DNA of 64,000 nucleotides from an uncultured Candidatus Binatia bacterium. Lineage in GTDB: Bacteria > Desulfobacterota > Binatia > Bin18. Made by a program: the position numbers and the translations under genes. The DNA lies in NCBI GenBank assembly GCA_965214605.1, contig OZ243961.1, positions 320,001 to 384,000 of the forward strand, written 5' to 3'. Positions 589 to 17,194 of the stretch are shown here, one piece after another (the stretch's first letter is position 1; each line of letters begins with the position of its first letter). Under the pieces are notes generated by a model. That model was not told the origin of the DNA. It did not search any database and worked only from the letters and a program-made list of their open reading frames with translations.

Positions 589-2034
589 CTATGCTGAGAG
601 TTTTGTCTTCAACAATTGGTTGACGAGTTGCGGATTCGCTCTCCCCTGGGTCGCCCTCATGATCTGGCCAACAAAGAAGCCGAGCAGTTTTTTCTTCCCA
701 CCCCGGTAGGCGGCAACCTGATCTGCATTGGCGGCCATGACCTGATCAATCTGGGCTTCGAGTGTGGCGGTATCGCTGACCTGAAGCAGCCCTTGAGCGT
801 GAATGATTGCGTCCGGGGGCTGGCCGCTGCTGCGCATTTGGTCAAAGACGGTTTTTGCAATTTTGCCGCTGATTTGGCCGTCGTGGATCAGGCTGACGAG
901 CTGTGCGAGGTGCGCAGGCGGACACGGCCAGCGGGAAATATGCAGCCGATTGTCGAGTGTCTCGTCTTTGAGCACGCGCAGCACGCTGTCCATCACCCAG
1001 TTGCTCAGCGATTTTGGATCGACCGCCTGAGCGTGCACCGCCTCTTCATAATAGTCGGCAACGTCCTTATGGGCGGTTAAGACCGCAGCGTTGTAGGCCG
1101 GAAGGCCGTATGCCTCGATAAAGCGCCTTTGTCGGTCGGTCGGGAGCTCCGGCAAGCTGGTTTTGAGGGCTGCCACCCAGGTGTCGTCAACGACAAGGGG
1201 GAGTAAATCTGGGTCGGGAAAGTAGCGATAATCGTGGGCAAACTCTTTGGTGCGCATTGAGCGGGTGACTTCCCGCTCAGCATCCCACAGCCGGGTTTCC
1301 TGTACAATCCTTTCGCCCGATTCGGTGGCCCGTATCTGACGGGTCCTCTCGTACGCAATCGCCTTTTCGACCGCTCTGAACGAATTGACATTTTTAATTT
1401 CGGTGCGGGTCCCCAACTCGGCACTGCCGCGCGGTCGAATTGACACATTGGCATCGCAGCGCAGGCTGCCCTCTTCCATATTGCCGTCACACACTTCGAG
1501 ATACCGCAGCAGGGTGCGCAAGGTGCGCATATACGCCCCGGCCTCTTCAGGGCTGCGTATATCCGGCTCACTGACAATTTCCAAGAGCGGCACCCCGGTG
1601 CGGTTCAGATCCACCAAACTCGCCTCCCCCTCGGCGTCGTGAATATTCTTGCCGGCGTCCTCTTCCATATGAATCCGGGTCAGGCGCACCCGTGTGGTCC
1701 GATCCTGAAGCGGCACGTCAAGATAGCCGTGCTCGGCAATGGGGAGCTCATACATGCTGATCTGATAGCCCTTGGGCAGATCTGGGTAAAAATAATTCTT
1801 GCGTGCCCAGCGACTGTGGGCTGCAATCCGGCAGTGGGTGGCCAGGGCAGTCTTGAGGGCATAATCGACCACCCGTTTGTTGAGGACCGGCAACACCCCG
1901 GGGAGTCCCATACACACCGGGCAGGTGTTATGGTTGGGCGCGGCGCCGAACTGGGTCGAGCACCCGCAAAAAATCTTTGACTCGGTCAACAGTTGGGCGT
2001 GGACTTCAAGGCCGATAACGGATTCGTATTCCAT
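589..2034 (-). CDS. gatB: Asp/Glu-tRNA amidotransferase subunit B
   Basis: [24 protein letters not shown] and YRYFPDPDL motifs; gatCAB order. Confidence 0.98.
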
Positions 2035-2107
2035 AGCTCAATTTTTTGCTGCAGCCAGACAGAGAGAACGATGACGGCCGCCCCGGTAAGAGCATTGTGT
2101 CGGGTGC

Positions 2108-3568
2108 TCAAATGGAGGGTTTTCTCGTCTGCCACTCAGTGGCCTGCTCATAGGCATAGCCGGCCTGCAGCAGCGTCTCCTCACCAAACGGTGCTCCAAT
2201 CAGTTGGAGGCTGATCGGCAGCCCCTGGGTGTCAAATCCACACGGGACCGACAGCCCCGGCAGCCCGGCGAGGTTGACGGCAATCGTAAAAATGTCTGAC
2301 AAATACATGGTCAGGGGATCGGTGACTTTCTCTCCGATCTGAAATGCTGTTGTTGGCGCGGTCGGTGTGGCAATCATATCGCAGTGCTCAAAGGCGGCCA
2401 GAAAATCCCGCCGAATTAAGTGGCGCACCTTTTGGGCCTTCAAATAGTACGCCTCGTAATAGCCGGCCGACAAGGCGTAGGTGCCGAGCAGAATGCGCCG
2501 TTTGACCTCCGGGCCGAACCCCTGGGCTCTGGTCTGGCGGTACATCTCGGTCAAGCCCGTCGCGTGCTCCGTCCGATAGCCGTACTTCACTCCGTCGTAG
2601 CGGGCAAGGTTTGAGCTCGCCTCGGCCGTGGCAACGATGTAATAGGCGGCGACAGCATAGTCGGTATGCGGCAGGGAGATCGAAACCGGCGCAGCGCCGA
2701 GCGCCTCCAACTCCTCAATCGCGCGGCGGACCGCGCGGGCGACCTCCGGCTGCACGCCCGGCACAAAATACTCTTTGGGAATCCCGACTCTGAGTCCCCG
2801 GACGCCACGCTTGAGCGCCGCCTGATAGTCCGGCACCGGCAGGTCGACCGAGGTCGACTCTCGGGGGTCATGGCCGGCAATGACCTGAAGCAGTGTGGCA
2901 CAGTCGCGCACATCCTTTGTCAGCGGTCCCACCTGATCGAGGGAGGAGGCATAGGCGACGACCCCAAAGCGACTCACCCGCCCATAGGTCGGCTTTAGCC
3001 CGACCACGCCGCAAAATGAGGCTGGCAAACGGATTGAGCCGCCGGTGTCTGTCCCCAGCGCCGCCAAGGCTTGGTCGGCCGCAACGCAGGCTGCCGAACC
3101 GCCCGAAGAACCACCGGGGACTCTCGAAATATCCCACGGGTTTCGGGTTGGGCCGTAGGCCGAGTTCTCGTTCGACGACCCCATGCCGAATTCATCGCAG
3201 TTCACCTTCCCCACAATGACCGCACCGGCGCCTTTGAGGTGATGGGTCACGCTGGCATCGTAGGGCGGTATGAAGTGCTCGAGGATTTTCGAGCCGGCCG
3301 TCGACCGCAGGCCTTTGGTCAGAATAAGATCTTTGATCGCAATCGGAATGCCGCACAGTGGGGGAGGGGACTGCGGGCTGGCTAGGCGGCGGTCTGCCGC
3401 CTCAGCCTGGGCGAGGGCCTGTTTTTCGTCGACCGTGACATAGGAGTGGAGCGTCCCGTCAGTCGCCTGAATTCGTGCAAGAACGGCTCGGGTGAGTTCT
3501 TGTGCGCTGAGTTCACGCGACTGCAACAACGCGCGGGCGTGATGGATGGTGAGGCGGGAGGGGTCCAT
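2108..3568 (-). CDS. gatA: Asp/Glu-tRNA amidotransferase subunit A
   Basis: Amidase signature GGSSGGSAA...GTDTGGSIR; SSNLARYDG; [11 protein letters not shown]. Confidence 0.98.
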
Positions 3569-3573
3569 GGTCG

Positions 3574-3861
3574 TTAGTCGATGATCTTGGGCACTTTCAA
3601 AAAATCGGCTTGTCGTTGTGGCGCGTTTTGGAGCAGCGCGTCCGCGTCGGCCTCGGTCGTGACCCGATCCTCGCGCAGGCGGCCTGCCATATCAACCGCC
3701 TGGGCCAAGGGCTCAACCCCGTCTGTCTCAAGCTCATTGAGTTTGTCCATGTAGGTCAAGACCTTATCGAAATGGGCCACGAGCTCATCCGTCTCCACGT
3801 CGCTGAGTTGTAGACGGGCCAAAACCGCCACCCGCTGGACTTCTTGTCGCTTCACTCGCAT
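3574..3861 (-). CDS. gatC: Asp/Glu-tRNA amidotransferase subunit C
   Basis: 95 aa, VAVLARL...LREDRV...NAP...KVPKII; directly upstream of gatA. Confidence 0.95.
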
Positions 3862-4279
3862 AGTGCTGGATATCCTAAAAGAAAGGGCTTGATCCGGCTA
3901 GGGGCTCTCGGCTACTCTCTTGAGCAGGGTGGGGGTGAGCGAGGGCGCTGCGGGGCGCTTTTGTCCGGGACGGCGGAGCGATTTCTGTGGGAGCGGCGCT
4001 GTCATTAGGTGGCCAAAAGATCTGCTGTGGCTGGAGGAGACTGATTGCGGGGCCCGTGTCCGGCGGTTCTTGCTTGAGGGCCGCCGCCTCAGCCGGGCCC
4101 TGAGTGCGGTGACCCGGCGGCACCGGCGGCGCTGTCTCACCCCTCATCTCAGCACCGCCGGTGACCCGCCCCCCGGCTGTGACGTCAAGTGAGAGGCTCC
4201 CTGTGACCGAGCGGGCGGGGCTCGGCGGCCACCGCCAGACTGAGGCGTTTGAGCTCTTCTCCGCTCTCTAGAGGTTTTC

Positions 4280-5560
4280 GTGCTGGATATAAAAATTGTC
4301 CGTGAGCATCCTGAGTTTGTCAAACGTGAGCTCCGCAAGGTTGATTTCCCGGCCGCGGATATTGATGCCTTGCTGGACTGTGACCGCCGGCGGCGTGCGG
4401 CCATCCAAGAAACCGAGGCGCTGCGCGCCTACCGCACCGCCCGCTCAAAAGAGATCCGCCGCATAACCGACCCCGAAGCGCGTCAACAGGCTATTGACGA
4501 AATGCGGGCGGTTGGCGGGCGAGTCCGTCGGCACGAAAAAGAGGTGGCCGCCTGTGAGGAGGAGTTTCAGCGGCGTTTGCTGCTGCTGCCGAACCTCCCG
4601 CATCCGGATGTTCCGGTTGGCAGAGACGAGCACGACAACCGCGTGACGCGACGCGTTGGCGACCGCCGTGCGTTTGCTTTTCCCCCCAAGCCGCACTGGG
4701 AGTTGGCCGAGCAGCTGGGGATTATTGATTTTGCGCGCGGCGTCAAGATTTCCGGGACCCGTTTCTACGTCCTCAAAGGGCTCGGCGCCCGTCTCCAACG
4801 CGCCCTGATCAGTTGGATGCTGGATCTGCATATCACACAGCACGGCTATACCGAGGTCTATCCGCCGGTCATGGTCAAAGAGCAGTGTCTGGTCGGGACC
4901 GGCAACCTGCCTAAATTTGGCGAGAACCTGTACCGGGACAGTGACGAAGACTTTTGGTTTATCCCCACGGCCGAGGTGCCGGTGACCAATCTGTACCGGG
5001 ACGAGCTGCTTGAGGCCGATGCCCTGCCGATTTACCATGTGGCCTACACGCCCTGTTTTCGGCGGGAAAAAATGTCGGCTGGCCGTGATGTGCGCGGCAT
5101 CAAGCGGGGGCATCAGTTTGATAAGGTCGAAATGGTCAAGTTTGTCCGGCCCGAAACCTCAGACGCCGAACTCACCACTCTGGTTGAGAATGCCGAGGAT
5201 GTGTGCCGCGGGCTCGGCCTCTCCCACCGGGTGGTCGAGATGTGTACTGGGGACCTGAGCTTTGTGGCCGCCATGAAGTACGACGTAGAAATATGGGCCC
5301 CGGGCTGCCAAGAGTGGTTAGAAGTCAGCTCGTGCTCGAACTTCCGGGATTTTCAGGCCCGCCGAGCCAAGATTCGCTATCGCCCAGAGCGTGGGGCCAA
5401 ACCGGAATTTGTGCATACCTTAAACGGTTCCGGCCTGGCCCTCCCCCGTGTGTTGATCGCCGTGTTGGAGAATTATCAGCAGGCGGATGGGAGTGTCGAG
5501 ATTCCGGCCGTCGTCCGTCCCTATATGGCTGGCATAGAGCGGATTGGCCCGGCGGTCTGA
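4280..5560 (+). CDS. serS: Serine--tRNA ligase
   Basis: MLDIK start, N-terminal coiled coil, PTAEVP, HQFDKVE, EVSSCSN, HTLNGSGLA. Confidence 0.98.
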   Translation: MLDIKIVREHPEFVKRELRKVDFPAADIDALLDCDRRRRAAIQETEALRAYRTARSKEIRRITDPEARQQAIDEMRAVGGRVRRHEKEVAACEEEFQRRLLLLPNLPHPDVPVGRDEHDNRVTRRVGDRRAFAFPPKPHWELAEQLGIIDFARGVKISGTRFYVLKGLGARLQRALISWMLDLHITQHGYTEVYPPVMVKEQCLVGTGNLPKFGENLYRDSDEDFWFIPTAEVPVTNLYRDELLEADALPIYHVAYTPCFRREKMSAGRDVRGIKRGHQFDKVEMVKFVRPETSDAELTTLVENAEDVCRGLGLSHRVVEMCTGDLSFVAAMKYDVEIWAPGCQEWLEVSSCSNFRDFQARRAKIRYRPERGAKPEFVHTLNGSGLALPRVLIAVLENYQQADGSVEIPAVVRPYMAGIERIGPAV

Positions 5561-5694
5561 AGTCGGTGTCGGCACCGTGTCCGGCAGGAGGATGAGCTGG
5601 AGACCCTTGTCGCATACAGCCGTTTGTCCGCTGGCTCAGGGGGCTTGACGGGATGGGAAGGGGCAGATACTTATCGGCCGGACATAGCGGAGTT

Positions 5695-6060
5695 GTGGCA
5701 CCCGAATCGGAAAAAAAAGAGTCCGGTCAGGAGCGTGAAGACAAGATTGAGCGCCTGACCAAAGAACTCTCCGGTCTCATCAACGAAGCCGGAACCCAGG
5801 GGCGTGAAGAACTGCGGGATTACGCCGTGAGCCTGATTCAGGCAGAGACCGAGACGACGTTAGTTGAAGAGGCGGCCGAACAACCCCAAGGAGGGAGGCA
5901 GACAGGAGGAATGGGGCTTCTCGCCCTCAGTATTCCGCTCTTCCTGATCGGCATCTTTTTGCTCCTTCTCTTTCCTCCAGTTGGCATGGTCATGCTCTTG
6001 TTTGCGGGTGTCATGGTCGTTGGCGGAGGGCTCTATACGCTGCTGTTTCATCGCAAATAG
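5695..6060 (+). CDS. Hypothetical membrane protein, first gene of Rieske/cytochrome b operon (start uncertain: 5653 or 5695)
   Basis: Charged helical N-terminus plus two C-terminal hydrophobic helices; ends 27 bp upstream of the Rieske gene. Confidence 0.65.
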   Translation: MAPESEKKESGQEREDKIERLTKELSGLINEAGTQGREELRDYAVSLIQAETETTLVEEAAEQPQGGRQTGGMGLLALSIPLFLIGIFLLLLFPPVGMVMLLFAGVMVVGGGLYTLLFHRK

Positions 6061-6087
6061 ACCTCACGGCAGGAGGAAACGCGCGAT

Positions 6088-6690
6088 ATGGCCAGAAAAC
6101 CCATCTCAGAAGAAGAACAACGAGAAATCGAAGCGCGGCGCCGTATCGAACAGATTGCCGAACGCAAGAAGCGGGTCTCCGAGCGGGCTGAGCGGAGTGG
6201 TTTGTGGTCTCGGCGCGACTTTTTTGGTCGGCTCAGCTGGGGCGGCTTCGGCCTCGTGTCGCTGATAGGCCTGCTGGCCTTTGTCCGGTCGGCTTTTCCC
6301 CGCGTGCTCTTTTTGCCCCCCTCGAAATTCAAAGCCGGTTTTCCGGGCGATTACCCGGTCGGTGAGGTGAGCGAAAAATACACCCAGGAATTTCGCGTCT
6401 GGATCGTCCGTGAACCCATCGGGCTCTACGCGATCTTTGCCAAATGTACCCACCTCGGCTGCACCCCGCGCTGGTCGGGCTCCGAGAATAAATACAAGTG
6501 CCCCTGCCACGGGAGCGGCTATGACAAGGCCGGCTACAATTTTGAAGGGCCTGCGCCCCGCCCGATGGACCGCTTTGAGCTCTCGCTTGATGAGGAAGGG
6601 CAACTCGAGGTGGATATGAGCAAGATTTTTACCATGCAGCCCGGGGGAGACCCCAACAAGCAACATCCGGACAGTATTCTCAGGATCTAA
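6088..6690 (+). CDS. petC: Rieske 2Fe-2S subunit of a Rieske/cytochrome b complex
   Basis: Tat-like SRRDFF plus TM helix; CTHLGC and CPCHGSGY boxes; GPAPRP. Confidence 0.93.
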   Translation: MARKPISEEEQREIEARRRIEQIAERKKRVSERAERSGLWSRRDFFGRLSWGGFGLVSLIGLLAFVRSAFPRVLFLPPSKFKAGFPGDYPVGEVSEKYTQEFRVWIVREPIGLYAIFAKCTHLGCTPRWSGSENKYKCPCHGSGYDKAGYNFEGPAPRPMDRFELSLDEEGQLEVDMSKIFTMQPGGDPNKQHPDSILRI

Positions 6691-6706
6691 CCAAGGAAGA
6701 CACGCT

Positions 6707-7477
6707 ATGAGCCAGTGGGACGAACTCAAACGCCAGGTGATGGAATCGCAGGCGTGGCAGTCCATCTTTCGCCACGGCTACGAGGACACGCCGCGGAACC
6801 GGATTCTGATGGTGTCGGGCAATGTGTGGCTCCATCTCCATCCGTCTAAAGTCCGCAAGCATTCAACCCGCCTGCGCTTCACCTGGTGCATGGGCGGGAT
6901 TACCTTCCTCATGTTTTTGGTCACGACCATAACCGGGGTGTATCTCATGTTCTACTACCGGCCGGTCGCCGAATACGCCTACGCGGATATCAAATATCTT
7001 GAATTTGATATGCCGTTTGGCATGTTGATGCGCAATATGCACCGCTGGGCGGCGCACGGCATGGTCATTGCCGTCTGGCTCCACATGTTTCGCGTCTTTA
7101 TGACCGGCTCCTATAAGCCGCCGCGCGAATTTAATTGGGTCGTGGGGGTTATTCTGCTGGTGCTCACCCTGTTGCTGTCCTTTACCGGCTACTTATTGCC
7201 CTGGGATCAGCTGTCAATTTGGGCGGTCTCCGTCGGATCGAACATGGGTCGGGCCACACCGCTGTTGGGGCACGAAGGTCCGGGCCGCGAGCTGCTGGGG
7301 GTCAACGCGGTCTATGACGCGCGGGCCTTTCTGTTTGGCGGCGGAGAAATTGGGGCGCATACCCTGCTGCGCTTCTACATTTTGCACTGTATTTTTATCC
7401 CGTTGGTGACCAGTCTGTTCCTGGCGGTCCACTTTTGGCGGATTCGGCGGGACGGATTCTCCGGTCCTCCACTGTAG
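6707..7477 (+). CDS. petB: Cytochrome b6-like subunit (split cytochrome b, N-terminal half)
   Basis: WCMGGITF, MHRWAAH, HMFRVFMTGSYKPPREFNW, GYLLPWDQ, RFYILH. Confidence 0.95.
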   Translation: MSQWDELKRQVMESQAWQSIFRHGYEDTPRNRILMVSGNVWLHLHPSKVRKHSTRLRFTWCMGGITFLMFLVTTITGVYLMFYYRPVAEYAYADIKYLEFDMPFGMLMRNMHRWAAHGMVIAVWLHMFRVFMTGSYKPPREFNWVVGVILLVLTLLLSFTGYLLPWDQLSIWAVSVGSNMGRATPLLGHEGPGRELLGVNAVYDARAFLFGGGEIGAHTLLRFYILHCIFIPLVTSLFLAVHFWRIRRDGFSGPPL

Positions 7478-7492
7478 GGGAGGGGAAGAGTC

Positions 7493-7582
7493 ATGCATGT
7501 GCTCGTTGTGCCCATCCTCATGGTCCTGGTGTTATGGGGGCTGTACGTGATTGCCAAGCCCCGCGTCCACAAGGATTCCTAA
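7493..7582 (+). CDS. 29-aa single-TM microprotein inside the operon
   Basis: MHVLVVPILMVLVLWGLYVIAKPRVHKDS*; purine-rich RBS GGGAGGGGAAGAG; fills the petB-petD gap. Confidence 0.6.
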   Translation: MHVLVVPILMVLVLWGLYVIAKPRVHKDS

Positions 7583-7600
7583 GCTCTTGCGGAGAGACGT

Positions 7601-8398
7601 ATGGCTGAAGTGACCGCTCCAACGCCACGGGTTGAGGCCTCGCTGAAAAAAGCGGGCAAGCCTGGGGACGACAAAGTCCACACCTGGCCCTTTCTGGTGC
7701 GCAGCGAGTTTCTGTGCACCATCCTCGTCCTGGTCTTTCTGCTCTTCTGGTCGTTGTTGGTCGACGCCCCCCTTGAAGAGCCCGCCAATCCGGGGCGGAC
7801 GCCCAACCCCTCAAAAGCTCCCTGGTATTTCCTGGGGTTACAGGAAATCCTGGTATTTTTTGATCCCTGGCATGCGGGCGTGGTTGCTCCGACCTTTATC
7901 ATTATCGGCCTGATGGTCATTCCCTATATTGACATTAATACCAAAGGGAACGGCTACTATACCTTTCAAGAGCGGAAGTATGAGATTTTGACCTTCCTGT
8001 TTGGCTTTCAGGTCCTGTGGGTGTCCACCGTTATCATTGGGACCTTTCTGCGCGGTCCTGGCTGGAACTGGTTCTGGCCCTGGGAGCCGTGGGACTCCCA
8101 TAAGGTTGAAGCGATGACGAACCAGGATCTGCCCTATTTGGTCGGGCTGCGCGACTACTGGACTTCGGCCGCCTTTGGAGGGGGGTTGGTTGTTCTGTAC
8201 TTTATTGTGGGGACTGTCCTGATGTATTGGTGGGTGGTGTGGCTCAAAGGCCGGGAGTTCATGCACCGCTGGGGAATGGCGCGTTTTGGGCTCACCGCGT
8301 TTCTGTTTCTGAATATGCTCGCCATTGTGGTCAAGATGGTGATGCGCAGTGCTTTCAACATCAAGTACATTATGGTGACACCGTGGCTGAATATATGA
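7601..8398 (+). CDS. petD: Cytochrome b6 subunit IV-like protein with extra C-terminal TM helices
   Basis: PLEEPANPGRTPNPSKAPWYFLG (PEWY-equivalent); PYID; multiple TM helices. Confidence 0.88.
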   Translation: MAEVTAPTPRVEASLKKAGKPGDDKVHTWPFLVRSEFLCTILVLVFLLFWSLLVDAPLEEPANPGRTPNPSKAPWYFLGLQEILVFFDPWHAGVVAPTFIIIGLMVIPYIDINTKGNGYYTFQERKYEILTFLFGFQVLWVSTVIIGTFLRGPGWNWFWPWEPWDSHKVEAMTNQDLPYLVGLRDYWTSAAFGGGLVVLYFIVGTVLMYWWVVWLKGREFMHRWGMARFGLTAFLFLNMLAIVVKMVMRSAFNIKYIMVTPWLNI

Positions 8399-8405
8399 GG
8401 CGCGG

Positions 8406-8579
8406 GTGGTGCTGGGGGTTGCAAAATTTTTACAGGCCTTCGCCTTGGCCGTTGTGGGCTATGCGCTGATGGTCGGCCTGACCGAAGCCAACAGCATGGG
8501 CAAGGAGTTATACCTCCTTGGGGCCGGCGTTGTAGTGTTTTACCTTGGCCGCCTGCTTGAACAGCGGGTGCGGGTCTAA
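8406..8579 (+). CDS. ~57-aa two-TM small membrane protein inside the operon
   Basis: GTG start after GAGG; VLGVAKFLQAFALAVVGYALMVGLTEANSMGKELYLLGAGVVVFYLGRLLEQRVRV*; fills the gap before the cytochrome c gene. Confidence 0.65.
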   Translation: MVLGVAKFLQAFALAVVGYALMVGLTEANSMGKELYLLGAGVVVFYLGRLLEQRVRV

Positions 8580-8589
8580 GTTGGGACGT

Positions 8590-11334
8590 ATGGCACGCAG
8601 AGAGTTTGACGACGATAAAAAATCCTATAGCGGACTCTTCCTCTTCTCTGTTGGTCTCTTACTGATGGGGACGGTCTGGTCGGTCTGGGACGACGCGGTG
8701 TCGCGTCGTCCGTGGAAAAAATACCAGGCTGAGTTCGCCCGTATGTCCTATCAGAAGCTGACCGCAGACCTCGAGCAGGAGGAGGGACGGCTGGCCAATG
8801 ATCCGGCCTACCAGGAGGCGGTGACAGCACTGGCCACAGCCCAAGCGCAGGTCAACAGCGAGGAGGGGGCTCAGCGTCAGGCCGAGCTGCAGGCCGAGCT
8901 GGCGGTTGCCGAAGTGGCGGCCGGCGATGCCGAAAACGCCCTCCGGCTGGTGCGCAGCGAGATTGAGGTGGCCTGGTACGAGTATGACCACGCCATTATA
9001 ACGAACCAGTCGACCCACGCCCCCAAGGAACATCTTGATGAGCTGCTGGCCGAGGCCGAGGTTTTGGATGCGGCCTTCAAAGCCAGCACTGCCCACCGGG
9101 ACCAGATCCAGAACGAAATTGATGAAATCACCCTCAGCGTCCGAGAGTGGAGCGATACCCTGCGGCAGCTGACCGCTGACCGCGAGCGCTTAAAACAGCG
9201 GCGGGATGATACCGTGTTGTTTGCCTCCGAGAGTGTCCTCATTCCCTACTTCCCGTCTATTGAGCAGGTGGTCTTGTCGGAGTTTGATCGGAGTAATTTT
9301 GATACCCCGCTGCAGCGTGTCGACCGCTGTATCTCGTGTCACGTGGGGATTGATCGCGGGGGCTTTGAGGACCAGCCCCATCCGTACAAAACCCACCCCC
9401 ATCGGCGGCTGTTGCTGAGCACGCATGTCGGGTGCACGCCGTGCCATGAGGGACAGGGGGTGGCCACGAATAGCATTGCCCAGGCGCACGGCAACGTGCA
9501 GTTCTGGGAACACCCGCTGCTCGAAGGGGAGAAGGTTGAGGCCAACTGCATTAAGTGTCACGCCGACGTGCAGAATGTCGAATTTGCCGAGAATATCGCC
9601 CGAGGCGAGAAGCTGTTCATGCAGGTGGGGTGCGCGGGCTGTCACCTCGTTGAGGGCTATGGCGAGGTCCGCAAGATTGGGCCTCATCTGAGACGAGTGG
9701 CGGCAAAAGCCGATCCGTCCTGGTTGGTGGAGTGGGTGACCAACCCGCACCAATTCCGCCCCCAAACCCGCATGCCGCAGTTCTTTTTTACCCAGGCCGA
9801 GGGGGAAGCCATTGCCGCCTATCTCCTCGACGCGAGTCAAGAAGCGGGCCAGGCCTGGCTGGACACGAGGCCGGCGCCACAGGGCATTGATCCGACCGAC
9901 GCCGCGCTGGTCGAACGAGGCAGAGCCCTGGCTGCTTCGGTCGGCTGCCGGGGCTGTCATATGCTTGAGGAGGGGCAAACGGCGACCCTCGTCGGCTCGA
10001 CCAAGACGTATGCGCCGCTGCTGGCCCGGATTGCGGAAAAGACCAGCCCGCGTTGGCTCTACTACTGGATCAAGAATCCCCGCGACTACTCGCCGCATAC
10101 GGCCATGCCAAGTCTGCGTCTGACCGATGAGGAGGCCACAGCCATCGTCTCCTACCTGATGACCCTGGGAGAAGAACCGGCCGCCTTTGCCGCGCGGCCC
10201 GACCTCGAAGATCCCGAGCTGATCGATCACGGCCAGGGGCTCATCCGCCAGTACGGCTGTCACGGTTGTCATGAGATTCCGGGCATGGAGAGAGAGGGGC
10301 GGATTGGGGTGGAGCTGTCCGCCTTTGGCTCCAAGACGCTCGAAGAGCTCTATTTTGGGAACCGGACCGACATTCCCCATACCTGGGATGGCTGGACGTA
10401 CTATAAGATCAAGGAACCGCGCGGCTATGCAACCGAGCGCATTGCGCAACTGATGCCGTGGTTTAATTTACCGGATGAGGATATCCGCCTGATTCGGGTC
10501 TTTCTGGCCAGTCGGACCGAAGGCGAGTTTGCCGAAGCCTACCATGCCCACAGCAAATGGACCGCGGCCTTGGTTGCGGGTGAGCGCTTAGTCCAATACT
10601 ACAACTGTACCGGCTGCCACATGATAGAGGACAAGGGGGGAGACATTCGGGCGTTGTACCACGAGAGTCCAACCCTTGCCCCGCCCATCCTCAAGGGGCA
10701 GGGCGAGAAGGTCCAACCCGAGTGGCTGTACGAATTTCTCAAAGGGCCGACCCCCATCCGTCCCTGGCTTGAGGTTCGTATGCCTACCTTCCATTTGACG
10801 GATACCGATGCCCGGACCGCGGTCGACTACTTTATCGCCCAGGCCAAGCTCGACAATCCCTACACCTTCGTCAATCCCGCCGACCTCTCGCCCCATATGG
10901 TGCAGGCGGGCAATAGGCTGATGTCCGATGACTACTTCGCCTGTTTCTCGTGTCACCAGCAGGGCGACAAAAAACCCGAGGGCCCTCCCGAGGGCTGGGC
11001 GCCTGATTTAGAGCTGGCCAAAGAGCGTCTGAATCCAGACTGGGTGGTCAGATGGATTGAAGATCCCCAAAGCCTGATGCCGGGAACGCGTATGCCGAGT
11101 TTTTATCCGGGCGGACCGGATGATATTTTAGCGGCCGATGAACCCAAACAGATGGAAGCCATGCGGGACTATATCTGGACCCTGGGCGTTTCGCAGCGGG
11201 CCGCAGAGCCCGCCTCTGCGGCGCCGGATCCGGCGGCTGGTGGGGGGGAGCGCGTGCACTCTGCTCCCGAGACCGCGCCGGGGCCCGCGTTGTCCGGGGA
11301 ATCGGTCGCGTCCTCCGCGGCGTCCTCCGGGTAG
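8590..11334 (+). CDS. Membrane-anchored octaheme cytochrome c with coiled-coil stalk
   Basis: N-terminal TM, ~150-aa coiled coil, 8 CxxCH motifs (CISCH, CTPCH, CIKCH, CAGCH, CRGCH, CHGCH, CTGCH, CFSCH); likely ATG at 8590. Confidence 0.92.
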   Translation: MARREFDDDKKSYSGLFLFSVGLLLMGTVWSVWDDAVSRRPWKKYQAEFARMSYQKLTADLEQEEGRLANDPAYQEAVTALATAQAQVNSEEGAQRQAELQAELAVAEVAAGDAENALRLVRSEIEVAWYEYDHAIITNQSTHAPKEHLDELLAEAEVLDAAFKASTAHRDQIQNEIDEITLSVREWSDTLRQLTADRERLKQRRDDTVLFASESVLIPYFPSIEQVVLSEFDRSNFDTPLQRVDRCISCHVGIDRGGFEDQPHPYKTHPHRRLLLSTHVGCTPCHEGQGVATNSIAQAHGNVQFWEHPLLEGEKVEANCIKCHADVQNVEFAENIARGEKLFMQVGCAGCHLVEGYGEVRKIGPHLRRVAAKADPSWLVEWVTNPHQFRPQTRMPQFFFTQAEGEAIAAYLLDASQEAGQAWLDTRPAPQGIDPTDAALVERGRALAASVGCRGCHMLEEGQTATLVGSTKTYAPLLARIAEKTSPRWLYYWIKNPRDYSPHTAMPSLRLTDEEATAIVSYLMTLGEEPAAFAARPDLEDPELIDHGQGLIRQYGCHGCHEIPGMEREGRIGVELSAFGSKTLEELYFGNRTDIPHTWDGWTYYKIKEPRGYATERIAQLMPWFNLPDEDIRLIRVFLASRTEGEFAEAYHAHSKWTAALVAGERLVQYYNCTGCHMIEDKGGDIRALYHESPTLAPPILKGQGEKVQPEWLYEFLKGPTPIRPWLEVRMPTFHLTDTDARTAVDYFIAQAKLDNPYTFVNPADLSPHMVQAGNRLMSDDYFACFSCHQQGDKKPEGPPEGWAPDLELAKERLNPDWVVRWIEDPQSLMPGTRMPSFYPGGPDDILAADEPKQMEAMRDYIWTLGVSQRAAEPASAAPDPAAGGGERVHSAPETAPGPALSGESVASSAASSG

Positions 11335-11383
11335 GAGGCGCGTCGGGGGAGAAGAACCCTATCCAAGTGAAGGAGGAGGAGAT

Positions 11384-12106
11384 ATGTACAGTGGTAAACA
11401 TCTAGTCGCCCTAGCTGTCCTGAGTATGCCTGTTGTTGGCCTCTCACACGCGTGGGGCTATGAGGGCGGGGCGGTGAGCAACGGAGGAACGATTCGTGGA
11501 ACGGTGAAGTTTGTGGGTGAGGCCCCGGCCATGGCCCGGATTGAAGCGACGAAAGACGTGGAGGTGTGCGGCAAAACAGAAAAGTTTGATGAGGCGCTTG
11601 TGGTTGGCGAGGGGAACGGGCTCAAGAACGTGGTGGTGTCCATTACCAATATTGAGAAGGGCAAGGCGCAGAGTGCTGAAGGCGGGACCCTGGACCAGAA
11701 AGAGTGTGTCTACCGTCCCCGCGTTGTTCTTTCCCCGGCCGGTTCTGATCTGAATATTTTGAACAACGACGGGATTCTGCACAATATTCACACCTACAGC
11801 GAGGCCAACCCTCCGATCAATAAGGCCCAGCCGAAGTTTCGGAAGAAGATGGCGCAGAAATTCGAGCAGCCCGAAACGGTGCGGGTTGAGTGCGATGCTC
11901 ATGGCTGGATGAAAGGCTGGCTCGTGGTGACCGACCATCCCTACTACGCGGTGACCGATGCCAGCGGGGCGTTTGAATTGACAGCGGTTCCTGCCGGTTC
12001 CTATAGCCTGAAATTTTGGCATGAAACGCTCGGTGAGCTGAGTCAGGAGGTCATGGTTGAGGCGGCTGGCGCGGCCTCGGTGACGGTTGAGATGGCTCAG
12101 CAATAA
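11384..12106 (+). CDS. Secreted cupredoxin-domain / carboxypeptidase-regulatory-like domain protein
   Basis: Strong RBS AGGAGGAGG; signal peptide; HNIH and CDAHGWM type-1 copper-like ligands; YAVTDASGAFEL..VPAGSY. Confidence 0.85.
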   Translation: MYSGKHLVALAVLSMPVVGLSHAWGYEGGAVSNGGTIRGTVKFVGEAPAMARIEATKDVEVCGKTEKFDEALVVGEGNGLKNVVVSITNIEKGKAQSAEGGTLDQKECVYRPRVVLSPAGSDLNILNNDGILHNIHTYSEANPPINKAQPKFRKKMAQKFEQPETVRVECDAHGWMKGWLVVTDHPYYAVTDASGAFELTAVPAGSYSLKFWHETLGELSQEVMVEAAGAASVTVEMAQQ

Positions 12107-12116
12107 TCGGGGAGAG

Positions 12117-12148
12117 AGAAGAGACCGCTGGTCGGCCTCTTCTTTTTT
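12117..12148 (+). terminator. Probable rho-independent terminator of the Rieske/b operon
   Basis: Hairpin AGAAGAGACCG-CTGGT-CGGCCTCTTCT (one mismatch) followed by a T run. Confidence 0.6.
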
Positions 12149-12161
12149 CAAAAAGCTTTCA

Positions 12162-12190
12162 TTGACTATAGTCAAAAACTTTTATTCCAA
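12162..12190. repeat. TGACTATAGTCA palindrome family, copy 1
   Basis: TTGACTATAGTCAAAAACTTTTATTCCAA, between convergent genes. Confidence 0.85.
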
Positions 12191-12213
12191 AAACGCTGAC
12201 TTGGTACTCCCCA

Positions 12214-13026
12214 CTAGGGGTTCACCACCTGTTCTCCCCTTTGCCAGCGTTGGGCTCCATCGGACTGCTCTAGCGTTTGGGCCAGAGCCTGGCAGAGTTC
12301 ATAATGGCTCCCATCAAGGCCGGCTTTGGTCAGACTGTCAATGAAACCGTTGAGCACGGCATTGCCCATGACAAACGCATGGGCATCAATGGGCACCTGC
12401 TGCGCAGACGGGCTGTGTCCATAGGCGTGTTCACATGCCGTCAGGCGCAGCGAGTTCCAGGCGCGGCATTTGAGGGGCCGGGCTTCGTAGGCCATGCAGC
12501 GGTTCTGATCTAAGAGGGGGCAGGCACGGGGCGGCTGTGGGCGGGGGGAACGAGGAGCCTGCTGGTGGTGGAGGCGGGTGGCGAGGCGGTGGCGCAGGGC
12601 GTCGAGTTCGGCGTCCGTGCAATGGCGCCGAAGCCAGGCGGCGAGGGAGAGTGCTTCGGCCGCGGTGACGAGCACAACGGGCACATAGCAGCACCAGGCA
12701 CAGCCCGCGTGGCAGGCGCGCCGGCCCTTTTGGGGGGACTGGTCAATGATCGTGTCGGCCCAGCTCTGGGCATTGGCGACGAGGCGGTCGAGCAGAGCGG
12801 TGGTGTCCGGTCCGTGGTGGATGATATCGGTGGCATCATGAAACTCGGCCGCATAGACCTGGAGTTCATGCCTGGCCGCTGGTGGTAAGCCGGGGAGGGT
12901 GTCGAGATACTGCTGGATCTGTGTCGGTGAGGGCAGCTGCTGGAGGGCGGCTTTGATCGCGGCGACCGTGGGTGGTCGGGGGGCGGGGCGTTTTTTTTGT
13001 TGCCGGCGTCGTCGTGCTCGGTTCAT
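12214..13026 (-). CDS. YkgJ-like / Fe-S cluster (CxxxCxxCC) protein
   Basis: CHAGCAWCC...CPLLDQNRCMAYEARPLKCR. Confidence 0.8.
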   Translation of the reverse strand: MNRARRRRQQKKRPAPRPPTVAAIKAALQQLPSPTQIQQYLDTLPGLPPAARHELQVYAAEFHDATDIIHHGPDTTALLDRLVANAQSWADTIIDQSPQKGRRACHAGCAWCCYVPVVLVTAAEALSLAAWLRRHCTDAELDALRHRLATRLHHQQAPRSPRPQPPRACPLLDQNRCMAYEARPLKCRAWNSLRLTACEHAYGHSPSAQQVPIDAHAFVMGNAVLNGFIDSLTKAGLDGSHYELCQALAQTLEQSDGAQRWQRGEQVVNP

Positions 13027-13159
13027 GGCGCGTTTTCTCCTGCCTCCTTCTTTTAAGCCCCTGGCGGCGGGTGTGTCAAGCGACAGGGGGGGACGGCAGC
13101 AGGCTTGCGTTCTGGGCCAGTCGGCATAAGATAGGGGGGACTCAGAAGGGAGGCACGAT

Positions 13160-13597
13160 ATGGCGACAGTCCATCAGGTATTCGACCCACTCGACGCGGC
13201 CCTAGTCCGGACCGATGAAGAGGAATGGATTCAGAGTGGAGAAGGCAACCAGTTTAAAGTGTTGCGGATCAGTAAAGAGACCGGAGCCTGGAGCGCGCTC
13301 ATCAAGGCGAAAAAAGGGCAGGTCAATCCGCCGCATACGCACCTTGGGGCGGCCGACTTTTATGTCATCTCGGGAGGCTTTGACTATCGGGGCGGTTCTG
13401 CACGGGCAGGCGACTGGGTCTATGAGCCGGCCGGAGCAGTGCACGAAGCCACCTCACATCCCGTTGATACGATTTACCTCGCGAATGTCTACGGCCCGGT
13501 CGGCTTTCACGATGCGGAGGGCAATATTGCCCAGGTCCTGGACTGGCGGACCATTCAGCTCATGGTTGATGAGGCTAAGCAAAAGGCTGACGGCTAG
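13160..13597 (+). CDS. Cupin protein (ChrR-like / 2,4'-dihydroxyacetophenone dioxygenase-like)
   Basis: PHTH..., GDWVYEPAGAVH cupin motifs; RBS GGAGG. Confidence 0.85.
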   Translation: MATVHQVFDPLDAALVRTDEEEWIQSGEGNQFKVLRISKETGAWSALIKAKKGQVNPPHTHLGAADFYVISGGFDYRGGSARAGDWVYEPAGAVHEATSHPVDTIYLANVYGPVGFHDAEGNIAQVLDWRTIQLMVDEAKQKADG

Positions 13598-13636
13598 CAG
13601 CCTTTTGAGGGAGAAGGTTTTTCCCCTCTTTACACC

Positions 13637-13660
13637 ACACTCTGACTATAGTCAGAGTGT
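13637..13660. repeat. Perfect 24-bp palindrome, TGACTATAGTCA family copy 2
   Basis: ACACTCTGACTATAGTCAGAGTGT equals its reverse complement. Confidence 0.9.
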
Positions 13661-13758
13661 AAAATTCCAGCCCCTACCAAACACCCCCTCATATCAAAAC
13701 CCCTATTAACTCTTTTGTTTTTGGGATGTAGATGTAAATTGGGGAGGAGGGTCAGAGG

Positions 13759-13786
13759 TTGGAATAGATATTTTTGACTATAGTCA
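13759..13786. repeat. TGACTATAGTCA family copy 3 (inverted relative to copy 1)
   Basis: TTGGAATAGATATTTTTGACTATAGTCA; its reverse complement matches 12163-12190 except in a short central patch. Confidence 0.85.
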
Positions 13787-13886
13787 GATTATTCTTGAGG
13801 GTGTCCACAGTTAACATGTTGAGCCCCGACCGGCCGGCATCTGCATCCCCCAGACGACGAGCCTCCCTCCTGCATCCCGACTTCTC

Positions 13887-13940
13887 ATCGTCAGGGGACA
13901 TGGTTTCAAGAATCTCGGCCCACTTGTCCCGCGCCACATT
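13887..13940 (-). repeat. 54-bp direct copy of the 3' region of the DUF151 gene (15196-15249)
   Basis: ATCGTCAGGGGACATG(G/T)TTTCAAGAATCTCGGCCCACTTGTCCCGCGCCACATT, 1 mismatch. Confidence 0.92.
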
Positions 13941-14470
13941 CCACCCCCCCAGCGTCGTCATGCTCCGAGGCGCTGACTCCACGCGCAGCGCAATCTGGGG
14001 CCTGGGGCGGCGGCCGATTCGAGCAGTGGTATGGGCGGTGATCAGCCGTAAACGCCGAAGTTTCAGCGTCTTCGCCTCAAGATGTTGCATCCGGTCACGA
14101 CGGTCTGGAAGACGGGGAAGAGGTTGAGAGGTTGATCTGAACGCCGTGGTCGCCGCACCACGGTCGCCCACGGCCGAGGGCACGCGCCCTCGCCAAAGCT
14201 GTACCTGGCCAGACAACAGGTCAAACGCTCTGAGCGCCTCAGCCGCGGCCGAGTTGCCCCATACCTTGGGGACGGGTTCAGCGGCGTAAACCGCGGGGGA
14301 TTGCCGTGATCTTGGTCATCGTGTCCGTCGCCGCGAAGAGTGAGGCGACTCGGTTGAGGTCTACCCGGTCAATCGGGACTCGCTGAGCGCCGAGGTAAAG
14401 GGCCGCATGGGGGGAGACGTCAATACGACGTCTTTGCCAGAAGTCATCAGACTTCTTATATATCCACAAA

Positions 14471-14498
14471 AGTTAACATAATATATCTTATCAGACAT
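14471..14498 (-). other. dif: dif-like XerC/XerD recombination site
   Basis: Minus strand ATGTCTGATAA-GATATA-TTATGTTAACT: 11-6-11 layout; XerD arm differs by 1 base from E. coli TTATGTTAAAT; AT-rich and intergenic. Confidence 0.75.
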
Positions 14499-14524
14499 AA
14501 AAGGCGCCCCGCAACCCCCCGCCC

Positions 14525-15172
14525 TTACTCGACGAGCTTATACTCCACGAGCGCTTTTAAGGACGGGCTGGGGCTGACTTCGAGAAAGCGCCGATAGTAC
14601 AGGCGGGCCTGTTCGGGATCGTGGGTGTTCTCACAGAGCCGGGCCGCGGCCCACAAGGCCGGGGCCTGCGCCGGTCCCGGGCTGTCGGCCGCCCGGCTAT
14701 AGTGGCGGCGCGCGCGCGCGAGATCGCCCGCCTGCTCGGCGGCGTCGCCGAGCTTGAGCCAGGCAAACGGGACGAGGTAGTGGGCGGCGGCCGGCGGTGG
14801 GGCGGCGGCGACCATGGCGCGGTAGGCCTGGAGCGCTCTCTCGGGGTCGTGCGGCTCAGCCGCCCGGCCCAGGTACCAGAGCGCCAACTGGCGCGGCCGC
14901 CCGGCCAAGTGCGCCGCCGCGGCTTCAAAATGCCCGACCGCCCCGGCCGCGTGCGCCGCCATCCCCACCCGCAGGGCCTCCAGGCCGTGCGCGGTCTGGG
15001 CCGACCAGACCAGGCGGCCCCCGACCCAGGCACCGCCGATGAGGACTCCCAGGCTGGCCAGGCTCAGACACAGGCGCCGCCGGTGCCGACTCCACCGCGC
15101 CACCGGTCCGGCCCACCGCGCCAGCCGCTCAAGCGGCTGACGACGGAGGGTCGCTTTTCGTGCGGGTCGCAT
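14525..15172 (-). CDS. Membrane-anchored TPR protein
   Basis: One TM helix followed by TPR-like helices (AWLKLGDAAEQAGDLARARRHY; ARLYYRRFLE). Confidence 0.7.
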   Translation of the reverse strand: MRPARKATLRRQPLERLARWAGPVARWSRHRRRLCLSLASLGVLIGGAWVGGRLVWSAQTAHGLEALRVGMAAHAAGAVGHFEAAAAHLAGRPRQLALWYLGRAAEPHDPERALQAYRAMVAAAPPPAAAHYLVPFAWLKLGDAAEQAGDLARARRHYSRAADSPGPAQAPALWAAARLCENTHDPEQARLYYRRFLEVSPSPSLKALVEYKLVE

Positions 15173-15177
15173 GCCGG

Positions 15178-15693
15178 CTACATCTTGTATTTGAAATCGT
15201 CAGGGGACATGTTTTCAAGAATCTCGGCCCACTTGTCCCGCGCCACATTGGAGAGGTCGGTGTCGTCCTTTTGCCCCTCCTGGTGCACCACGCTGGAGGC
15301 CTCAAGGACCTGTTTGGCCACGAAGATCGGGCTTTTGGTGCGCAGGGCTAAGGAAATCGCATCGCTCGGGCGGGCATCAATGGTCAGCGTGGCGTCCCCC
15401 GCCTGCAGACGAATGGACGCGTAGTAGGTGTTGTCCTTGAGCGCGGTGACCTCAATCGATTCGACCCGGCCGCCGAGCTCGGCAATCAGCGTGTGGAGCA
15501 AATCGTGGGTCATCGGGCGCGCCATCTGAATGCCCTCAAGCTCGGTGGCCATGGCCGTGGCTTCCATGAGCCCAATCCAAATCGGCAGGTTGAGCTTATT
15601 GTCGACATCCTTGAGCAGAACGATGGGCGTTTTGGTCATGGGGTCGAGGGTTAATCCCCCGACACGCATCTCAATAAAATTCTCTCGGGCCAT
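15178..15693 (-). CDS. Bifunctional nuclease family protein (DUF151)
   Basis: LPIWIG, RPMTHDL, IDARPSDAISLA motifs. Confidence 0.92.
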   Translation of the reverse strand: MARENFIEMRVGGLTLDPMTKTPIVLLKDVDNKLNLPIWIGLMEATAMATELEGIQMARPMTHDLLHTLIAELGGRVESIEVTALKDNTYYASIRLQAGDATLTIDARPSDAISLALRTKSPIFVAKQVLEASSVVHQEGQKDDTDLSNVARDKWAEILENMSPDDFKYKM

Positions 15694-15781
15694 AAATTCC
15701 CCCTTGCTCCGCCCTCACGGGTCTCCCCGCCCCACTCTGCCGTGCCCCGCCCCACAGCAGGAGACCCTCGCCAGGGCCCCG

Positions 15782-17194
15782 CTAGGCCGTGACCAACTGA
15801 TCGATCACCCGGTAGAGTTGGTTGAGGTTGCGGCACTCTTCGACCATCGTGCAGTAGGGCGCGTAGCGATCCATCTCGCTATCCCCAAATCCCCAGGTGA
15901 GCTTACTCTCCGGGTTGAGCCAGATCACCTGCTTGGCGTGCTGCTGGAGCTCTCTGAGCACCCACTCGTGGGGCAGATTGTAGTTATTGCGCGCGTCTCC
16001 CAAGATAATCACCGTGGTGCGCTTGGTGATCGTCGCAAAATGGTCGCGATGAAAGGTCCGAAACGCCCGGCCGAAGTCCGAATGGGCGTAGAGGTTGATC
16101 AGATTGCCCCGCAGCGATAAGTCGATGGCCGCGTGAATATCGTTGTCTTCGAACAGCCGGGTGACCTCGCCGAGGTCGGCGACAAAAATATAGCTGCGCA
16201 CCCGCGCGTAGAGATCCTGGATCGAGTACACAAACTGGAGCATGAAGCGCGAGACGTTGCGGACCGAGTCCGAGACGTCGCACAGGATGACCACCTGGGG
16301 CTTTTCTTTTTTCTTTTTGTCGAGCACGATCTTAAACGGCACGCCTCCGTACTGGAGGTTTTTGCGCAGGGTTTGCTGCAGATCAAACCGCCCCTTTTTG
16401 GCGTGTTTGCGCCGGATGGCAATCACCTGCTTGAGGCGCTGGGCGAGCCGGGCGACCGCCTCTTTCATTTTCCGAATCTCGTCTTCGGTCAGATAATAGA
16501 AGCTTTTATCGGCCAGGCTGCGCATCTTGTGCTGGTCGCGGACCTGGGCGTCCTGCTTCTCTAACTCGGCCCGCACATAGCTGCGAATCATGTGGGCCAA
16601 GTCCTGCAGGCGTCGGTCGAGATAGCCCATCATCTGCTCGATCTGTTCGGGCGACAGGCCCGCCTGCTGCAGGGCGTCTTTGAGCGTGGCCAGTTCCTGG
16701 GTCAGCTGACCGAAGCCGAGCTGCTGGGCGACCGCATTGGCAAACTGTCCCTCTTGAAACGCGCGCTGAATATCCTGCAGGTTGGCCTGCTCGGCCGCTT
16801 CGCGCAACAGGCGCTCCAACTGCCCGGTGTTGTTCTCCAGGAGGGCCCGGGCCAACTCGGACAGCTCAGCGCCCATGTGGGCAAGCGCGTCTTTGAGCTG
16901 CTCGAGAAACTGCGCGAACTCCTCTTCGGACAGCTCCATGGCCTGCCTTGTCTCGGCCCCGGCCTCTTTGATGATGTCCCCGAGGCCGGTGAAAAACATG
17001 TCGAACAGTTCGTCATAGACCGGGATGTCGACCACGCGCTTGACCAGGGTTGAGCGCAGCGTGTCCTTGACCACGGCGCGCTCGCCAAGGCCGAGCAGCC
17101 CGAGGGCGGCAAAGGTGTCCATATTCTCGGCGGCCGACACCTTGAGGCCGTTCTGCCGCAGGAGATTGCCAAATTCGATAATCTTATCGTCCAT
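15782..17194 (-). CDS. VWA domain protein (CoxE-like)
   Basis: CDVSDSV MIDAS-like motif, ILGDARNN, WLNPE, ECRNLNQL. Confidence 0.9.
   Translation of the reverse strand: MDDKIIEFGNLLRQNGLKVSAAENMDTFAALGLLGLGERAVVKDTLRSTLVKRVVDIPVYDELFDMFFTGLGDIIKEAGAETRQAMELSEEEFAQFLEQLKDALAHMGAELSELARALLENNTGQLERLLREAAEQANLQDIQRAFQEGQFANAVAQQLGFGQLTQELATLKDALQQAGLSPEQIEQMMGYLDRRLQDLAHMIRSYVRAELEKQDAQVRDQHKMRSLADKSFYYLTEDEIRKMKEAVARLAQRLKQVIAIRRKHAKKGRFDLQQTLRKNLQYGGVPFKIVLDKKKKEKPQVVILCDVSDSVRNVSRFMLQFVYSIQDLYARVRSYIFVADLGEVTRLFEDNDIHAAIDLSLRGNLINLYAHSDFGRAFRTFHRDHFATITKRTTVIILGDARNNYNLPHEWVLRELQQHAKQVIWLNPESKLTWGFGDSEMDRYAPYCTMVEECRNLNQLYRVIDQLVTA

Follow-up and report, generated by a model that had tools for sequence, protein, structure and literature searches.

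In a 64,000-nucleotide stretch of the genome of an uncultured Candidatus Binatia bacterium (GenBank assembly GCA_965214605.1, contig OZ243961.1, positions 320,001 to 384,000 of the forward strand; hereafter the window, with positions counted from its first letter), eight tightly packed open reading frames (ORFs) on the + strand at 5695-12106 make up an operon for a Rieske/cytochrome b complex accompanied by an octaheme cytochrome c and a cupredoxin-type protein. We consider it likely, though some way from assured, that this operon encodes a complete, class-wide quinol:periplasmic-acceptor oxidoreductase working in the forward direction, in which the octaheme takes the place of cytochrome c1 and the putative copper protein acts as a shuttle or a docked subunit towards an aa3-type oxidase.

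The product would be a b6f-type quinol oxidoreductase of the APWY clade of cytochrome b, and the only Rieske/cytochrome b complex of this genome. Quinol would be oxidised at a Qo site to which cytochrome b6, a five-helix subunit IV and the Rieske protein all contribute. Of its electrons, one would then pass through hemes bL, bH and ci in a proton-motive Q cycle, and the other from the Rieske cluster to the membrane-anchored octaheme, through its five His/Met class I hemes and on to a periplasmic acceptor, for which the co-encoded, plastocyanin-like product of the last gene, g8, is the prime candidate. The reduced carrier would in turn donate to the CuA site of the aa3 oxidase, and three membrane proteins of 29, 57 and 121 amino acids (aa) are probably supernumerary subunits or assembly factors. 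That the octaheme fills the role of cytochrome c1 or f and passes electrons to the copper protein is something we infer from gene linkage. The data themselves show gene content, motifs, folds and conservation, from which the assembly of the parts into one complex, the direction of flow, the binding of copper by g8 and the nature of the acceptor are inferred.

We favour this reading because the core cofactor motifs (Rieske boxes, b-heme histidines, ci cysteine and Qo motif) are intact; because the gene order is conserved, with short gaps and a terminator hairpin after g8; because b6 is highly conserved and stands alone in its family in this genome; and because the octaheme retains all its heme motifs together with five invariant Met-Pro motifs. 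In addition, g8 has a well-supported cupredoxin fold with an invariant H/C/H/M set and its linkage to such complexes recurs in another class, the aa3 oxidase has a plain CuA subunit II, and the one genome survey of the Binatota reports just the combination of respiratory genes that such an operon would explain.

The eight genes, g1 to g8, are separated by gaps of 7-49 nucleotides (nt), and a hairpin with a T-run at 12111-12149 (+ strand; -20 kcal/mol, z -2.76) is likely to be the intrinsic terminator of the operon, although a consensus terminator scan does not list it. The first-pass annotation of this stretch had described eight packed genes closed by a terminator, a heme ci cysteine in the WCMGG motif of b6, an octaheme and a cupredoxin, and all of these were recovered in our analysis.

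The Rieske [2Fe-2S] protein (g2, 200 aa, 6088-6690) matches PF00355 above cut-off (E 5.6e-8, 33 bits), begins with a twin-arginine-like RRDFF anchor and contains both cluster-binding boxes, CTHLGC and CPCHGSGY, the latter making it S-Y type; NCBIfam models of PetC and of the bc1 Rieske protein match it in part, each below cut-off. According to Kao and Hunte 2014 (PMC4122944), the S-Y signature denotes a high-potential cluster. Cytochrome b6 (g3, 256 aa, 6707-7477; PF00033, E 3e-42) is the sole PF00033 match of the whole genome. It has four helices and keeps all four heme-b histidines (at the HRW, LH, LH and VH/MH positions), and in an alignment to solved b6 chains (6rqf, 1q90; E 1.4e-47 to 6rqf) its Cys61, within WCMGG, falls on Cys35, the heme ci position. 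Subunit IV (g5, 265 aa, 7601-8398; PF00032, E 2.1e-6) was aligned to PetD of solved b6f complexes, showing that the Qo motif PEWY is replaced by APWY, and its hydropathy profile contains five hydrophobic segments where b6f has three helices. APWY is present in 86 of 101 loci scanned and an alternative motif in none of them; the Rieske signatures in the same scan were S-F (39 loci), S-Y (29) and T-F (1).

Preceding the core of b6 is an N-terminal extension (residues 1-48; 6707-6850) with the invariant pattern RH.Y.DT.RNR...N..LHLHP, including His43 and His45. In a 2025 study of anammox complexes (PMC12954380), an extra heme b is predicted to be held by a histidine of a b6 N-terminal extension, and by analogy LHLHP may be a candidate site for such a heme, an equivalence that we offer as a lead only. 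The same pattern is kept even in paralogous complexes of other Binatia.

The octaheme cytochrome c (g7, 914 aa, 8590-11334, with the frame open from a TTG at 8545) has an N-terminal membrane helix and eight CxxCH motifs, a number shared by 66 of 67 full-length orthologues; four stretches of it match Pfam Cytochrom_C. Orthologue alignments divide it into a c7-like part, in which heme motifs 1-3 are accompanied by conserved distal histidines, and five class I cytochrome c domains (motifs 4-8), each with an invariant Met-Pro. Class I His/Met heme domains are typical of oxidase donors. An AlphaFold model places helices at residues 9-38 (membrane), 40-69, 72-89, 91-137 and 143-206, so that long helices cover residues 40-206 and some 165 helical residues follow the membrane anchor; the mean predicted local confidence (pLDDT) of this model is 65.3, and below 50 in the triheme part. 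The octaheme had been called 'stalked' at first pass. A long helical segment is indeed modelled, and a stalk is one possible reading of it; in the model of the anammox complex, comparable helices wrap around the complex (PMC12954380). Look-alikes of g7 in Planctomycetota and Nitrospinota, found in a protein atlas, are leads only.

The last gene, g8 (11384-12106, frame open from 11138), encodes a secreted 240-aa protein in which a plastocyanin-like cupredoxin domain (residues ~99-183) is joined to a transthyretin/CarboxypepD_reg-like beta-sandwich made up of the N-terminal strands and residues 184-240. Pfam assigns PF13620 (CarboxypepD_reg) to residues 183-237 and makes no Copper-bind or cupredoxin call, and the sole NCBIfam match is a weak one to amicyanin (E 0.0018, 18.6 bits against a cut-off of 110). 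We nevertheless regard g8 as a cupredoxin because of its fold and its ligands, despite the failure of curated sequence models to recognise it. Its structure model is of high confidence (pLDDT 91.9, predicted TM-score (pTM) 0.85), and its top Foldseek hits, from E 1.8e-5, are cupredoxins: a purple cupredoxin, a NirK domain, amicyanins, plastocyanins and pseudoazurins. In VIA-align, residues 99-183 fit whole plastocyanins (Z 10.5-10.7, root-mean-square deviation (rmsd) 1.7-2.0 A over 84-85 residues), and the N-terminal strands plus residues 184-240 match transthyretin/carboxypeptidase-regulatory sandwiches. Across 32 aligned orthologues H133, H136, C170, H173, M176, C62 and C108 are invariant, and from this pattern H133 (or H136), C170, H173 and M176 are the putative type-1 copper ligands. 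CxxHxxM is found in all 70 orthologues extracted from the 73 loci with a match, two genes that run off a contig end and one lacking a start having been excluded; we take its C-x2-H-x2-M spacing to be that of the amicyanin ligand loop.

Beyond these orthologues, g8 is part of a large, essentially unannotated family. Its profile matches 3647 representatives at E <= 1e-30, including giant repeat proteins that match the beta-sandwich part only, and among the top 150 matches 113 of the 125 proteins of 190-360 aa contain CxxHxxM. Automatic names of these relatives differ between databases: 'plastocyanin' at JGI, 'carboxypeptidase regulatory-like domain-containing protein' at NCBI.

The arrangement of the operon is far beyond what chance would produce, because it recurs across the class. 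When species-representative genomes were scanned with the octaheme alignment, at least 567 loci were confirmed, the best 80 of which were analysed. They are mostly labelled Candidatus Binatia, Binatota, Binatus or, under an older name, 'Deltaproteobacteria', with few other labels, and include one from a genome of the same genus (G002). Counts are limited to loci with enough flanking sequence; both this set and a smaller one of 17 loci from 16 relatives consist of kin and partly overlap, and are hence non-independent. The octaheme is preceded by b6 and by subunit IV in 65 of 65 eligible loci each. In the same 65, g6 is kept in 61, the Rieske gene is linked in 48, g1 precedes the Rieske gene in 44, and g4 is detected by tblastn alone in 18; g8 lies downstream of the octaheme in 71 of 76. 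The smaller set has the Rieske protein, b6, subunit IV and the octaheme at 17/17 and g8 at 12/17; one of the five loci lacking g8 is at a contig edge and two belong to a paralogous operon. The cupredoxin and both small ORFs are therefore kept beside homologous operons, so the refuting condition that the first-pass annotation had set, their lack of conservation there, is not borne out. Identity of b6 is 80-100% across most orthologous Binatia loci and 71% in one (L025). Where the Rieske gene is unlinked, as in Candidatus Binatus soli, a copy of 64-67% identity was found elsewhere in each of three genomes checked.

The association extends, in part, beyond the class. In a 301-genome sample of the GTDB phylum, 17 genomes contain an octaheme match at E <= 1e-50, nine in the class of the window and eight outside it. 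Those eight provide nine loci, in six of which b6 and subunit IV precede the octaheme. In two of the nine, from one family, the Rieske gene is preceded by a g8-like gene encoding C-x2-H-x2-M, beside a fused b6/subunit IV with APWF. Since the g8-like gene adjoins the complex of a distant class, the cupredoxin linkage recurs there with a changed gene order. At the distant locus L132 the g8-like gene is flanked by two proteins, both read by eye only: one of 452 aa (1790-3148) is porin-like and has a single CxxCH, and the other (3852-4655) resembles CarboxypepD_reg at its C-terminus.

Other Binatia carry, at L026 (G023:C2) and L027 (G030:C13), a second Rieske/b6/subunit IV/octaheme operon that is paralogous to that of the window. 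Its neighbours encode a NarJ-like chaperone and a molybdopterin oxidoreductase together with the 4Fe-4S subunit of that enzyme, and the operon itself includes a 121-135-aa 4Fe-4S protein between the Rieske protein and b6. Its octaheme, of 731-734 aa, is without the long helices, and a cupredoxin is absent. In these respects it resembles anammox-type complexes with cytoplasmic iron-sulphur (FeS) modules.

Three further membrane proteins complete the operon, and none of them matches a family in Pfam or NCBIfam. The 121-aa g1 (5695-6060) combines an acidic, helical N-terminal part with a C-terminal hydrophobic stretch of ~46 residues in hydropathy plots, which is probably a two-helix hairpin; the starts of its orthologues correspond to the GTG at 5695, an in-frame ATG further upstream, at 5653, giving 135 aa. 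From the ORF list, g4 (7493-7582) is a 29-aa single-helix peptide and g6 (8406-8579) a 57-aa membrane peptide, probably of two helices. An ORF scan found a hydrophobic mini-ORF between b6 and subunit IV, with the recurring g4-type pattern RVLVxP...AKP, in 44 of 69 loci; in many loci without one the b6-subunit IV gap is just 35-90 nt. Among the eight operon proteins there is no Pfam or NCBIfam match to PetA (cytochrome f) or to PetG/L/M/N, and the octaheme and unrelated small ORFs sit where b6f has cytochrome f and PetG/L/M/N.

In this genome, subunit II of the aa3-type oxidase has CuA and is without a cytochrome c domain. The genome also encodes a qNOR-like NorB and an alternative complex III (ACIII) that looks complete. 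In the ACIII cluster (L123, G000:C1:3826000-3842000) ActC and ActD are fused in a 623-aa ORF, beside a pentaheme ActA and a monoheme ActE. The Binatota survey by Murphy et al. 2021 (PMC8262859) reports an iron-sulphur protein (ISP) and cytB, with cyt1 lacking, in Binatales and UBA1149, records few soluble c cytochromes in Binatota and takes ACIII as the working complex. The 'missing cytochrome c1' of that survey is a gap that the octaheme would fill.

Several observations weigh against a forward, g8-dependent complex and temper our confidence in it. The three membrane-proximal hemes of g7 look bis-His, and bis-His hemes are usually of low potential; an electron leaving the S-Y Rieske cluster, which is predicted to be of high potential, would thus face an uphill step. 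The g8 gene is missing downstream of the octaheme in five of the 76 eligible loci. Two more g8 paralogues are encoded in the genome, away from respiratory genes (by eye, among coenzyme A (CoA)-transferase-, short-chain dehydrogenase/reductase (SDR)- and luciferase-like ORFs, an uninformative setting), and as the large g8 family is often standalone, g8 need not be dedicated to the complex. ACIII alone could serve the aa3 oxidase. The quinone itself is also problematic: the genome, which is 99.99% complete, has no MqnA/MqnD (PF02621) match, and MenB and UbiG have matches only under curated cut-offs, whereas the survey reports menaquinone biosynthesis as present (PMC8262859). Finally, according to Kao and Hunte, no member of the APWY clade was characterised as of 2014, and they propose reverse operation (PMC4122944).

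A more far-reaching version of the forward reading would see in the operon a distinct class of complex III, found in Binatia and some relatives of other classes, in which eight c hemes form the fixed connection between a Q-cycle core and a blue-copper subunit that is dedicated to it and stably docked. Beside heme ci, the core would perhaps have a further heme b, held by the LHLHP histidines where the two halves of the dimer meet, and the beta-sandwich would be the docking module. We think it doubtful that all of these elements hold together. Were they to do so, the complex would amount to a heme-copper wire plugging directly into the aa3 oxidase or, alternatively, to a reversible wire through which periplasmic C1 dehydrogenases could feed the quinone pool.

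That last possibility leads to an alternative in which the complex works mainly in reverse, or reversibly, and spends proton-motive force to drive electrons into the quinone pool, the electrons arriving by way of the cupredoxin and then the octaheme. They would come from periplasmic dehydrogenases, whether methanol or methylamine dehydrogenase or molybdoenzymes, and reverse operation of this kind has been proposed for APWY-type complexes. The molybdopterin oxidoreductase, FeS subunit and NarJ-like chaperone beside the paralogous Binatia operon, with the small 4Fe-4S protein inside it, are consistent with such a flow, as is the ligand spacing of g8, which we take to be amicyanin-like, amicyanin being also its one, weak NCBIfam match. 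The Qo motif points the same way, since APWY lacks an acidic residue and is paired here with an S-Y or S-F Rieske, a pairing that Kao and Hunte tie to reverse operation (PMC4122944); so does the prediction, in the survey, that Binatota are methylotrophs (PMC8262859). We still judge it unlikely, because it is hard to see why predicted heterotrophs or methylotrophs equipped with complex I and an aa3 oxidase would require electrons to flow uphill, because this is the only cytochrome b complex of the genome and is class-wide, including lineages of varied metabolism, and because the window operon has no dehydrogenase neighbour.

The part assigned to g8 could also be wrong. The protein might be an accessory, concerned with copper handling or assembly, or a docking beta-sandwich with some other metal role, and the octaheme would then reduce soluble cytochromes or the oxidase directly. 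The lack of a Pfam Copper-bind call, the sheer size of the family with its giant repeat proteins, and the occurrence of paralogues in non-respiratory contexts are all compatible with this, and the beta-sandwich resembles, at the level of fold only, a small partner chain of the Kuenenia hydrazine dehydrogenase complex (6hif_Y, Z 10.7). An accessory function sits poorly, however, with a full type-1 ligand set that is invariant throughout the aligned orthologues and a CxxHxxM motif present in every one scanned, with a domain that superposes on whole plastocyanins at an rmsd of ~1.9 A, and with a linkage to the complex that recurs in a distant class under a different gene order. We therefore think it rather improbable that g8 is not an electron carrier. 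It is very improbable that the helices of the octaheme raise its heme domains across the periplasm towards outer-membrane or extracellular partners: the ~165 helical residues behind the membrane anchor, the best matches of b6 and subunit IV to Geobacter ExtP/ExtQ models and, read by eye, the porin-like monoheme protein upstream at the distant L132 would suit this, but neither the window operon nor its conserved neighbours include an outer-membrane conduit gene, the five distal hemes are of the oxidase-donor type described above, and the comparable anammox helices wrap around their complex in the model (PMC12954380).

In favour of the forward reading, too, the ORFs next to the operon have a housekeeping look; the 426-aa ORF upstream is one that we take, on inspection by eye only, to be seryl-tRNA synthetase-like. 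Shine-Dalgarno-like, purine-rich stretches lie 5' of most operon starts. A consensus promoter scan revealed no convincing + strand promoter upstream of 5695, and Rfam at the gathering threshold returned zero matches in 5000-16000. Just downstream of the operon the palindrome TGACTATAGTCA occurs in three intergenic copies (12163-12174, 13643-13654 and 13775-13786) and may be an operator or promoter element. A 54-nt direct repeat lies at 13887-13940 and 15196-15249, its copies 98% identical and 1.3 kb apart; a stretch resembling the translated repeat is present in the locus of a relative (L016).

Comparison with described systems separates what is familiar in this operon from what is not. The first-pass annotation had judged the composition 'at best poorly described'. 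Its interpretation was reasonable, and the judgement holds for the cupredoxin and the small proteins; for the core it overstated the novelty. In Lucker et al. 2013 (PMC3578206), Nitrospina is reported to have an operon of a Rieske protein and a split cytochrome b in which an 'atypical' octaheme is the only c-type subunit, and Kuenenia and Methylomirabilis share its structure. By that description, the core order of Rieske protein, b6, subunit IV and octaheme in Nitrospina gracilis, Kuenenia stuttgartiensis (Kustd1480-1485) and Methylomirabilis oxyfera is that of the window operon, where the octaheme is likewise the only c-type subunit. To this core the window operon adds g8, with its cupredoxin and beta-sandwich, the mini-peptides g4 and g6, and the 121-aa g1. 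The anammox complex, Kustd1480-85, has since been modelled with a 5-helix subunit IV and heme cN (PMC12954380); as described there, it shares with the window operon these two features (the heme being at the ci/cN site), the histidine of the b6 N-terminal extension and the long octaheme helices. Anammox versions have in addition an NAD(P) oxidoreductase/FeS subunit, which the window operon lacks.

The complex also fits the APWY clade that Kao and Hunte defined for cytochrome b (PMC4122944), with which it has in common the APWY Qo motif, a split cytochrome b and a Rieske protein of the S-Y or S-F type; we place it there from motifs and the best NCBIfam match rather than from a tree. Binatota are not among the APWY-clade lineages named in section 13 of that paper. 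With cyanobacterial and chloroplast b6f and plastocyanin, the window operon shares b6, subunit IV, the heme ci cysteine, CTHLGC/CPCHGS and a candidate acceptor of plastocyanin fold; it differs from them in having no cytochrome f and no recognisable PetG/L/M/N, a b6 N-terminal extension, a 5- rather than 3-helix subunit IV, APWY in place of PEWY and a cupredoxin joined to a beta-sandwich. The named models that score best against its b6, its subunit IV and part of its octaheme are Geobacter ExtP/ExtQ/ExtS (NCBIfam NF040969-71), all under their curated cut-offs: 267.9 against 290 bits for ExtP, 54.5 against 150 for ExtQ, and 68 against 100 for ExtS, which covers two class I domains of g7 only. 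The Geobacter ext cluster includes an outer-membrane conduit.

Our literature searches returned no paper that describes the cupredoxin/CarboxypepD_reg protein or these small ORFs together with such complexes. Complexes of APWY type that combine a Rieske protein and cytochrome b with multiheme cytochromes occur widely among environmental bacteria, and the operon would both explain why the only genome survey of the Binatota, a globally distributed uncultured group, was left with a 'missing cytochrome c1' and change the respiratory chain predicted for them. It also names a concrete, testable partner, a cupredoxin joined to a beta-sandwich, and, as candidates for new subunits, three small membrane proteins that are conserved. 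Overall, the core design seen in the window is one already known from Nitrospina, Kuenenia and Methylomirabilis, to which Binatia appear to add, as new elements, a copper partner and three small membrane proteins.

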